Assembly (NCBI GenBank): GCA_964016885.1
Contig: OZ024756.1
Coordinates: 62,001 to 126,000 of the forward strand
Length of the DNA: 64,000 nt
Direction of reading: 5' to 3'
Source of the DNA: Eledone cirrhosa
Lineage: Eukaryota
Part shown: positions 16,005 to 45,506 of the stretch, one piece after another
Layout: every line of letters starts with the position of its first letter
Position numbering within the stretch: position 1 is the first letter of the stretch
The notes under the pieces: model-generated
What the model saw: the letters and a program-made list of their open reading frames with translations, nothing else
Told to the model about the DNA's origin: nothing
Database searches by the model: none
Program-made: the position numbers and the translations under genes

Positions 16005-16455
16005 TATATATTAACAAATGGAAACTATATTTATTTCATTATACATATTTCAAGGGCCACCAGAGCAAACTATGGTGCGCTTTCATCAAATAAAATATAA
16101 TATAGGTTAGTTTTATAAATAAATATTGGCATACCCTTAAAAAATGCAACCATTCTGGTTGGAATCTCCTGGATAGTGGATTCCAGGAGATTCCAACCAG
16201 AATGGTTGCATTTTTTAAGGGTATGCCAATATTTATTTATAAAACTAACCTATATTATATTTTATCTGATGAAAGCGCACCATAGTTTGCTCTGGTGGCC
16301 CTTGAAATATGTATAATGAAATAAATATGGTTTTATAAATATAGTTTCCATTTGTTAATATATTGTATTTTTACTCCAATAATTTGTTGAGTGCTTTATA
16401 TCAGTTATAAAAATATTTGCTTGTTGTATCCCAACAAATTAAATATAACTTCTAC
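16005..16455 (+). mobile_element. Hammerhead-bearing palindrome (arms about 170-180 bp, 8-nt spacer) plus about 90-bp tail; Penelope-like pLTR remnant
   Basis: Arms 16005-16173 and 16182-16362 are reverse complements. Outer arms and tail are homologous to 45070-45506. Confidence 0.8.
16258..16323 (+). ncRNA. Minimal type-I hammerhead ribozyme motif
   Basis: Stem I TATTTTAT/ATGAAATA; core CTGATGA (16266-72); stem II AAGCGCACCATAG..CTCTGGTGGCCCTT; GAAA (16304-07); short stem III A-TATGTA-T; predicted cleavage after A16315; AATAAA at 16320. Confidence 0.75.
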
Positions 16456-17439
16456 ATATATAATATATATATATTATTTGCTATGCACTCCCATTGCAGC
16501 ATGGTGTTCATTGAGAGGACTTCTATATTGCACATGCAATTCATCTTTGCATTACCACCATCACCAACACAACCACCACCATTACCACCACCATCACCAT
16601 CACCAACACAACCACCACCATCACCACCTCACCAACACAACCACCATTACCACCACCACCATCACCAACACAACCACCACTCCGGGGTACATTCTTCCCT
16701 CCTCCCCTTCCATTAGTCTTCTAGATGTCATGGTTGGAAGGTCAGTAGTTCTCTGTAAGGAATGGAACTGTGATGGAGAGAGAGAGAGAGGAGGAGGGAG
16801 AGATGGAGAGAGAGAGAGAGATGGAGAAAGAGAGAGAGTGAGTTCTGAGAGGGAGGGAGATGCCGGGGTGTGAGGGATTTAAAAGCATTGCAGGATGGAA
16901 GAGATTGTTTGTCTTCTTAGACAGTGGTTGGGTAGGGAGTAGGAGGGTGGTGGTGGGGACAGTAAGGTAGATGAGTGATGAGGAGGGATGGAGGGAGAGG
17001 GAGTGTGGAGGGATTTTAGGGAATATTTCTCAACTATGTAATACAGTAAATATAAAATATATAGAGATAAAGAAATAATACATCACAGCACACAAATATA
17101 AATATATTTGTGTATATATATATATATATATATACACACACACAAATATATATATATATATATATATATACACAAAAAAAAAAAATATATATATATATAT
17201 ATATATATATTTTTTTTTTGTGTATATATATATGTCTATATATATATATATATATATATATGTGTGTGTGTATATATATGTATATATTTGTATACACACA
17301 CACACACGTGTGTGTATATATATACACATACATATATATTTGTATATGCATTTGCATATTTATTATATTATATACATTCTTTATTACACACCCACACATA
17401 AACCTGAACACACAATAGTAAGTAAATACATTGTATTCT

Positions 17440-17563
17440 AGCATTCAGACATTTCCTGGTGAATTATATATATATATATATATATATATATATATATATA
17501 TATATATATATATATATATATATATATATATTATATATAATTCACCAAGAAATGTCTGAATGC
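17440..17563. repeat. Inverted repeat (about 25-bp arms) flanking a (TA)n tract
   Basis: GCATTCAGACATTTCCTGGTGAATT ...(TA)n... AATTCACCAAGAAATGTCTGAATGC. Confidence 0.8.
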
Positions 17564-17815
17564 TTATCACTTATTTTTTTATCATTTATTTTGTTTTGAC
17601 CTGTTTAGCTTGATTTGGTTTTCGGCTTGGGTGGTTAATGCTTTCTTGATCACCTTTTCAGTTTTGTATGGCTTCTTAACACATTGTTTAGCTCTGGTTT
17701 TTAACTATTGAGCACTTTGCCAATATCATTTCTGATTTTTGCGTTTCACTTCGCTTTTCCTGCCCGCCTAAAATGCGATTCTTGCTGAATCTTTATTTAT
17801 ATATATATGTATAAT

Positions 17816-44400: not shown

Positions 44401-44943
44401 GCAGGGCAATAAAGATAGACGGTAGTCACGGAATAGGCAGACCTAGAAAAACCTGGGACGAGCTGATAAACTCCGACATCACACACTTACACCTCTCCAA
44501 GACAATGTCACTGGACCGAGACCTTTGGCGGTACTCAGTAACAGAGAAGACCCGCCTTACCTAAATATATAGTAAAACCTACTCCAGCCAGTAGGCATCT
44601 CTAACAAAATACACCCCGTCCCACCACCACCACCCCATCCACACCACCCTGTTCTATGTAAAGTTATGTTGGTGCCGCGCCATCCAGGCCGAAACAAATG
44701 AGATCGTGTAGGTGTCACGACAAAAAACACACAGTCCACGCTGTAATGTGGCCGTGTAGGCAACACGGTAAAAACCTCCCAGACCCACACTGTAAATGTG
44801 GTTGGTGTTAGGAAGGGCATCCAACTGTAGAAAACCTGCCAGACAGTCCTATGCGAGCAAGACAATCACTCTTGCCTCAAGTGGGACTACCCCCGTCCAA
44901 ACCCATGCAAGCGTGGAACACGGACGTTAAATGTTGATGATGA
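41470..44943 (+). mobile_element. Near full-length RTE-clade LINE (3' UTR type B) with internal RT deletion
   Basis: APE endonuclease (GTINVGTL, IQETRW, SAYAPQ, GDLNGH, VDYIL, SQHR), RT N-terminus (YRGIKL, QFGF), PHD-like finger, RLRWYGHVMR; (GAT)n tail. 5' boundary is approximate. Confidence 0.95.
41815..44564 (+). pseudogene. RTE endonuclease-RT ORF, disabled
   Basis: FVDLEK is fused directly to KFQTW at about 43640, so the QG and YADD motifs are missing. A 19-bp tandem duplication at 44132-44169 causes a frameshift. Confidence 0.92.
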
Positions 44944-45069
44944 TATTTGAGTATGTGTTAGTTGGTTACCAATACTTCACTATGCAGGGTAGAGCACTCA
45001 ATGAAGTGAGCAGGTGGTCTGTTTACTCTGGATTAATTTTAACCTGTTGACTTACACACATATATATAT

Positions 45070-45506
45070 ATCAAAGTAGAAGGGATATTTAATTTGTTGG
45101 AAATTCAACAAATATAAATGTTTATAACTGATTCAGAGCACTCGACAGATTTCTGGAGTAAATATTCAATGATATTAAATAAATGGAAACTATATTTATA
45201 AAACCATATTTATTCTATTATATATATTTCAAGGGTACCAAAAACTTTGGTACGCTTTCATCAGATAAAATACAAAGTGTGTTTTATAAATTTTGACATA
45301 GCCAAGGAAATCATACCTTATCAGTTGAATTTTCCTTGGATAGGAAAATTCAACTGATAAGGTATGATTTCCTTGGCTATGTCAAAATTTATAAAACACA
45401 CTTTGTATTTCATCTGATGAAACCAAAGTTTTTGGTACCCTTGAAATATATATAATAGAATAAATATGGTTTTATAAATATAGTTTCCATTTATTTAATA
45501 TCATTG
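45070..45506 (-). mobile_element. Hammerhead-bearing palindrome (arms about 165-170 bp, 5-nt spacer) plus about 95-bp tail
   Basis: Arms 45167-45336 and 45342-45506; homologous to 16005-16455 in outer arms and tail. Confidence 0.82.
45211..45272 (-). ncRNA. Minimal type-I hammerhead ribozyme motif
   Basis: TATTTTAT-CTGATGA-AAGCGTACCAAA-GTT-TTTGGTACCCTT-GAAA-TATATA-TA-ATAGAATA: palindromic stem III (ATATATAT), 8-bp stem I. Confidence 0.78.

Follow-up and report, generated by a model that had tools for sequence, protein, structure and literature searches.

What leaves short, ORF-less palindromes with back-to-back hammerhead ribozyme (HHR) motifs in (TA)n runs of the Eledone cirrhosa genome? 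We studied this question in a 64-kb stretch of DNA (here, the window) belonging to a 3.0-Gb assembly. An initial annotation had described such inverted repeats there and ascribed them to Penelope-like elements (PLEs), either as extreme 5'-truncated insertions or as a separate, non-autonomous palindromic class. The palindromes proved to be real and can be explained without a new class, as members of multi-copy PLE families; with a probability of about 0.9, they are pairs of 5'-truncated 3' ends of ORF-bearing PLEs inserted in (TA)n. Published work, cited by PMC or bioRxiv identifier, was drawn on in excerpt, and statements about it extend to those excerpts.

Palindromes and hammerhead motifs in the window

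Self-BLAST recovered all the inverted repeats reported previously, at 16001-16367 (89.5% identity), 39081-39635 (91.7%), 39700-40077 (100%), and 45159-45514 (94.2%), together with a pair of 66-bp arms at 38305-38370/38477-38542. We refer to the elements as E1 (16005-16362), E0 (38305-38542), E2 (39084-39632), E3 (39700-40077), and E4 (45167-45506). Every one of them adjoins a one-sided tail of ca. 40 to 100 nt, absent from the initial annotation, with (TA)n beyond it.

The left arm of E1 (16005-16173, minus strand) is a tail-less PLE 3' end, Hydra-type by the motif comparison given below, whose 5' end at -189 falls at a putative initiator (negative positions are counted backwards from the common short 3' end of the family). 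Its HHR core reads TTGATGA in place of CTGATGA (C3>T), and its AATAAA was lost through a 14-nt deletion. The right arm (16181-16362, plus), also a PLE 3' end, retains AATAAA and an intact type-I HHR motif (core at 16266, predicted cut after 16315) and is followed by a tail of ca. 96 nt (16363-16460, plus) and then (TA)n. E4 belongs to an E1 subfamily (ca. 72% identical) and has a related tail (45071-45166, minus); the motif is intact in its left arm (core at 45264, minus) and has a 5-nt helix II deletion in the right. E2 pairs a left arm (39084-39373, minus), again a putative Hydra-type 3' end, with a tail-less right arm (39375-39632, plus; core at 39549); the left motif has the core CCGATGA (39167) and an 8-bp helix II, and the tail (38990-39083, minus) measures ca. 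95 nt. E3 is a perfect palindrome of 378 bp, two 3' ends of a PLE with a CCHH-type GIY-YIG endonuclease, with an AGCT microhomology at its center and atypical, minimal HHR-like cores at 39925 (plus) and 39852 (minus); its tail (39660-39699, minus) runs for ca. 39 nt into (TA)n. Finally, the long arm of E0 (38305-38474, minus; 170 nt), another candidate Hydra-type 3' end, stops at the 5' limit of its family, and the opposing short arm (38477-38542, plus; 66 nt), of the same family and tail-less, is truncated at GAAAC. The E0 tail (38227-38304, minus) of ca. 76 nt gives way to (TA)n.

A strict type-I HHR descriptor, run on both strands, gave four matches in the window, all inside palindromes (16266 and 39549, plus; 39167 and 45264, minus) and far above the level in 100 local shuffles (mean, 0.01; maximum, 1). 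These matches cover four of the eight arms of E1, E2, E3, and E4, to which the E0 long arm is added by separate evidence. Both E3 arms, with a CCGAAGA core and a helix I of 3 bp, were found by a loose scan but not by the strict descriptor. Each arm had been credited with CYGANGA-stem II-GAAA followed by AATAAA, a statement that is too strong, because the E3 arms match loosely and the E1 left and E4 right arms are damaged. No hammerhead appeared among the 150 strongest matches listed, of 230, in an Rfam scan of the window, and the folding z-scores of single HHR arms were weak (-1.63 to 0.10). Judged from the sequence, the type-I hammerhead core and helices I to III are present, and self-cleavage is predicted. 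Common to these motifs and known minimal type-I HHRs are the core, a short helix III with a palindromic-type loop, a long helix II, and dual motifs on opposite strands, as in the minimal HHRs lying 100 to 700 bp apart in Schistosoma (PMC4209133). Differences from them lie in the 63-nt branched helix II of E0, which escapes descriptors with a short spacer, in a C at position 4 in E2 and E3, and in the predicted status of the motifs here. Elsewhere, an isolated CTGATGA-hairpin-GAAA core (54880-54902, minus) was detected in the window by the loose scan only, and a genomic locus contains a further type-I motif with a helix II domain of 82 nt (L171:2741-2870).

E0 had been described as keeping only the 3' half of the motif. 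In fact, the minus strand of its left arm contains a complete core, which runs from helix I through CTGAGGA, a 63-nt domain, and GAAAC to a 4-nt loop, GTA, and finally the helix I partner; in the predicted fold, helix I is formed and helix II is branched. An exact pattern for it had 1,229 matches versus none for a control pattern, which suggests that short-spacer descriptors undercount PLE hammerheads. Across 10 copies of E0 and 10 of a sister family, 93.8% of cells pair and three pairs changed on both sides, these being three events between two related families with a pair count not above shuffles (342 of 500). The E0 motif is thus a complete predicted hammerhead, with a branched helix II for which we found no match in print.

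Read-through RNA of E1 is predicted to form a single hairpin (-269.5 kcal/mol) that pairs the whole HHR arm. Transcription had been expected to yield a long dsRNA hairpin plus one sense ribozyme, but since the modeled hairpin pairs the HHR arm, the two are unlikely to coexist in one molecule. Such a stable predicted structure could be taken to mean that the palindromes are kept by the host as functional dsRNA or ribozyme switches. We regard this as very improbable: the hairpin would sequester the HHR, the arms have accumulated core mutations and deletions, arm pairs mostly drift independently, and no host exon was recognized among the long ORFs of the window.

The window holds other repeats as well. 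At 23638-24339, two tRNA-headed SINEs stand head to head with a (TA)n center and flanks (arms 91% identical), perhaps because two copies inserted into a single TA run, or perhaps through a PLE-style inversion; more copies of this SINE are found at 34244-34608, 46991-47349, 53302-53455, and 58325-58651. A second interspersed repeat is present as an inverted pair of diverged copies (76%) at 29492-29812. There are also what we take to be a near-intact LINE-type endonuclease-RT ORF (41780-44564) and, presumably, a broken mariner-like transposase (19481-20636).

PLE coding regions in longer copies

Searches of the same genome gave 1,426 (E1), 2,143 (E2), 103 (E3), and 2,705 (E0) first-look candidates, which are not copy numbers, and the best 40 of each were scored. 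Copies of a family had a common 3' end and differing 5' ends. In longer copies, all five elements were colinear with PLE ORFs whose C-terminal GIY-YIG endonuclease is encoded on the HHR strand. Such copies reached the GIY-YIG ORF in E2 (L091 and L042), E1/E4 (L118, L120, and L146), and E0 (L177, truncated below the RT core), while for E3 the longer copy L095 had a Pfam GIY-YIG match (E value, 8.7e-7). A PLE-type RT was identified in the same ORF, from motifs seen by eye and overlap, for E1 (L142), E2 (L091 and L052), and E3 (L067). With Pfam, no RT match was returned for pieces of E2, whose GIY-YIG domain scored under the curated cut-off. Among the copies examined, which were not chosen for intactness, there was no intact full-length ORF, all being broken or partial. 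The HHR motif lies in the pseudo-LTR (pLTR), in the sense orientation relative to the ORF, and is atypical in E3. The adjacency of arms to PLE ORFs, whose absence the initial annotation had listed among its grounds for refutation, was therefore found for all families, and the option of extreme 5' truncation is borne out by common 3' ends and by longer copies that run into ORFs.

By motifs compared by eye with a published alignment, E0, E1/E4, and E2 match the Hydra-clade PLEs (Craig et al. 2021, PMC8557442). The E0, E1, and E2 proteins have the CxCX5C linker, CxxC before E, and CxH after N (the C of CxH is missing in the E2 copy L091), and CCHH is absent. The RT motifs DKT and RW(R/K) could be compared in E2 only, in which DKT and RWR were seen, as the corresponding region was recovered for E2 and not for E0 or E1. 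The three groups also share with that clade an HHR near the 3' end, (TA)n targets, an inverted truncated copy, and a one-sided tail. They differ from it in their long 3' UTRs (ca. 1.2 to 1.9 kb), tails of 76 to 96 nt versus 30 to 40, the predominance of ORF-less stubs, and a fixed 5' limit, of which we found no description in the portion of that paper used here. E3 does not fit the same clade, whose endonuclease lacks CCHH: its endonuclease has C-x2-C plus two His, that is, the CCHH type. BLASTP of its RT against those of E1 and E2 gave no match. On these sequence features, E3 is a PLE of another type than the Hydra-type elements E0, E1/E4, and E2.

Two other PLE remnants were observed in the window. 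A broken PLE ORF fragment at 35533-36107 (minus) is 52 to 62% identical to the protein of locus L093. A repeat at 15859-16004 and 20865-20989, consisting of a 62-bp palindrome with a one-sided extension of ca. 85 nt and abutting E1, resembles another PLE 3' end truncated below its HHR.

Anatomy and origin of the inverted pairs

In order to describe the insertions, we analyzed 110 of 120 fetched loci; the 10 dropped were second arms or neighboring repeats of loci already counted. The loci are best BLAST matches, with a bias to young copies and, for E1 to E3, to copies of query length. Two-ended inversions were scored at 55 of the 110 loci (E1, 17/30; E2, 7/28; E3, 7/24; E0, 24/28), by a rule that overlooked two genuine cases, the E1 of the window among them. 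The tail was present on exactly one arm in 52 of these 55 insertions, on neither in 3, and on both in none, and the junctions were overlapping in 24, blunt in 6, and provided with inserts in 25. With a shorter E1 query, 21 of 29 loci were two-ended and 20 of those 21 were one-tailed, although these loci overlap the first set in part. Family membership, fixed 3' ends, variable centers, a tail on one arm only, and (TA)n flanks are all direct observations.

As fragments derived from endonuclease-bearing (EN+) PLEs, with a one-ended tail plus an inverted 5'-truncated copy in 52 of 55 two-ended insertions, these loci follow the published PLE pattern. Inverted 5'-truncated copies, one-sided tails, and (TA)n targets are described in PMC8557442, which treats how PLEs form inverted pLTRs and tails as an unsolved question, and inverted pLTRs with palindromic junctions are described in PMC3846280. 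Animal non-LTR retrozymes (bioRxiv 10.64898/2026.07.22.740005) are similar in being ORF-less and PLE-related and in having a type-I HHR. They are, however, head-to-tail tandem arrays of units, each with an HHR, whereas each insertion here is one inverted pair, colinear with PLEs that bear ORFs, and hence not a retrozyme in that sense.

Nor is the palindrome a fixed unit copied whole, be it a MITE or a non-autonomous palindrome, as centers and arm lengths differ from copy to copy. Helix I was kept on both arms in only 21 of the 55 two-ended insertions. Together with the common majority sequence of short and long copies (see below), this speaks against the separate palindromic class that had been offered as the second option. 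The appearance of E0 as a fixed MITE came from a junction-spanning query and was a query bias, ruled out by core-only and 3'-end-only searches. Assembly fold-back artefacts or DNA-transposon MITEs retain a next to negligible probability. The perfect palindrome of E3 would suit them, as would the fact that no read or contig among the matches listed bridged the centers and junctions of the window itself; but the arms differ within four of the five elements, the tails are one-sided, the arms run into PLE ORFs elsewhere, and the internal length is variable, unlike that of a MITE. Furthermore, raw reads of other, independent samples contained opposite-strand joints in family members.

For the preferred reading, pairs of 5'-truncated PLE 3' ends, we propose that the enzyme of the element would cleave a single TA run on both strands and copy its RNA onto both DNA ends. 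Of two internal RT start sites, the distal one would be used for one cDNA and the proximal one for the other, and the tail would be one-sided because of this difference. The two short cDNAs would then be joined 5'-to-5' via microhomology or small insertions, the template being mostly uncleaved at the HHR. This scheme resembles that of PAc Poseidon (Frangieh et al. 2024, PMC11167929). For that element, target DNA is cleaved and extended on both strands, the tail is delimited by two internal RT start sites, HHR cleavage is dispensable, and uncleaved RNA is the main template. Inverted pairs, tail asymmetry counts, and a 5' run-off limit are not dealt with in the excerpts of that account.

The insertion data are compatible both with two-ended priming and with self-priming, in which one cDNA or an antisense template would fold back and so give rise to the second arm; self-priming was proposed in PMC3846280, and we consider it rather unlikely here. 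Partial or local fold-backs were scored at 8 of 82 E1 to E3 loci and 1 of 28 E0 loci (two of them misclassified two-ended insertions), and the E3 arms of the window are identical, with three non-majority bases in common. Against self-priming, a tail-less cDNA cannot give its partner a tail, and a tailed one would mostly have to halt precisely at the short end. In addition, one E3 arm joined 5'-to-5' to the ORF of a different PLE family (L070/L093; 1 of 39 loci checked) fits independent priming.

A general homogenization of arms found no support, only two of six E3 pairs having identical arms, and apparent heterologous E3 partners were removed as (TA)n artefacts from the reference flank. At L093, positions 1009-1192 (the E3 arm) are joined to 1192-3072, a truncated 627-aa RT-GIY-YIG ORF of the other family, within a 2.9-kb tandem duplication. 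One E0 insertion (L148-L160; G000 C20, C22, and C27) sits inside a large segment repeated at a spacing of ca. 100 to 130 kb.

The 5' limit of short arms

Arms of some families end at a preferred position. For E0, sampled with a query of the last 69 nt only, 28 of 28 arms ended within 174 nt, with 11 ends at -171 to -164 and one partner of 24 longer. Depth along a long E0 copy fell from 71,933 to 3,444 across this limit in public contigs (ca. 20-fold), the run that weighs most, and ca. 12- to 18-fold in three RAD runs, which are confounded by read length and a read-start site near L177:420-423. For E1, 26 of 29 arms ended within 186 nt and 16 of 50 ends lay at -187 to -180. In the E0 sister family, 9 of 26 ends fell at -36 to -32 from the HHR core and 6 were longer. 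E3 showed two looser clusters, and E2 showed none in its length-biased sample. No cluster of 5' ends was found at the HHR cut site.

At the limit in E1, E0, and the E0 sister family, there is a CA with an RGWYV motif 27 to 29 nt downstream. This pair is the only one in 430 nt in E1, one of five in 600 nt in E0, and one of two to three in 310 to 350 nt in the sister family; none was found at the 5' ends of E3 or E2. In Drosophila virilis, the TATA-less promoter of Penelope lies inside the pLTR and consists of an initiator (Inr) and a downstream promoter element (DPE), RGACGTGY (PMC2377424). The sister-family motif, AGACGTGT at +28, matches this DPE. The spacing between Inr and DPE is strict in Drosophila (PMC1538597) and is exact (+28) only in the sister family, versus +27 in E0 and E1. 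Unlike the Penelope promoter, the start here is deduced from insertion ends and not RNA-mapped, and the DPE-like motif overlaps HHR helix I, whose 5' strand doubles as that motif in the E0 long arm. The match, made post hoc, suggests that the CA initiator and DPE-like motif set a transcription start and that run-off cDNAs end there. Two other origins of the limit were dropped: a shared long-range helix closing at this point was seen in one E0 fold only, disappeared when upstream sequence was added, and was absent in E1 and E3, and a splice acceptor was discarded in view of ends that keep unspliced upstream bases.

We tentatively put forward, at somewhat less than even odds, that most stubs are "strong-stop-like" run-off cDNAs: RT would start just downstream of the HHR and run off an RNA 5' end set by Inr and DPE, and two such cDNAs per cut, one per start site, would give the palindromes. 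Many cDNAs of E1, E0, and the E0 sister family would then be run-offs, stopping where the RNA begins within the pLTR.

The same limit, within which all 28 E0 arms and 26 of 29 E1 arms in these samples end, could instead mark short arms as a self-propagating non-autonomous lineage, in which tailed stubs with a retained internal promoter give rise to RNA that PLE proteins copy again in trans. Stubs extending to the limit do retain CA and the DPE-like motif, an internal promoter is known from the Penelope pLTR (PMC2377424), and one E0 site has T in 11 of 22 short copies and in none of 7 long ones. We nevertheless judge such a lineage improbable. The majority sequences of short and long copies are alike at all E1 sites and at all E0 sites but one CpG, and a separate lineage is therefore unsupported; moreover, the centers vary, so the palindrome is not being copied whole. 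Most likely, the stubs are inert by-products, and their HHRs are inherited pLTR sequence.

The class itself is thus an explained by-product of known retroelements, and its value lies in the counts. Two modest details were without a match in print: the family-specific 5' limit and the complete E0 HHR with a 63-nt branched helix II. In a literature search outside of which lay subscription papers and bioRxiv supplements, we found no description of a 5' limit, twin priming, or an extended stem II. The strict one-tail rule and the 5' limit make specific predictions about the 5' ends of PLE RNA and about PLE reactions in vitro. If the run-off reading is true, PLE transcription starts could be read from thousands of genomic ends, and one scheme would cover the stereotyped pLTR length, the inversion, and the one-sided tail. 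In the E0 families, the 5' strand of HHR helix I would then serve as the DPE as well, and the E0 hammerhead with its branched helix II would be an undescribed variant.
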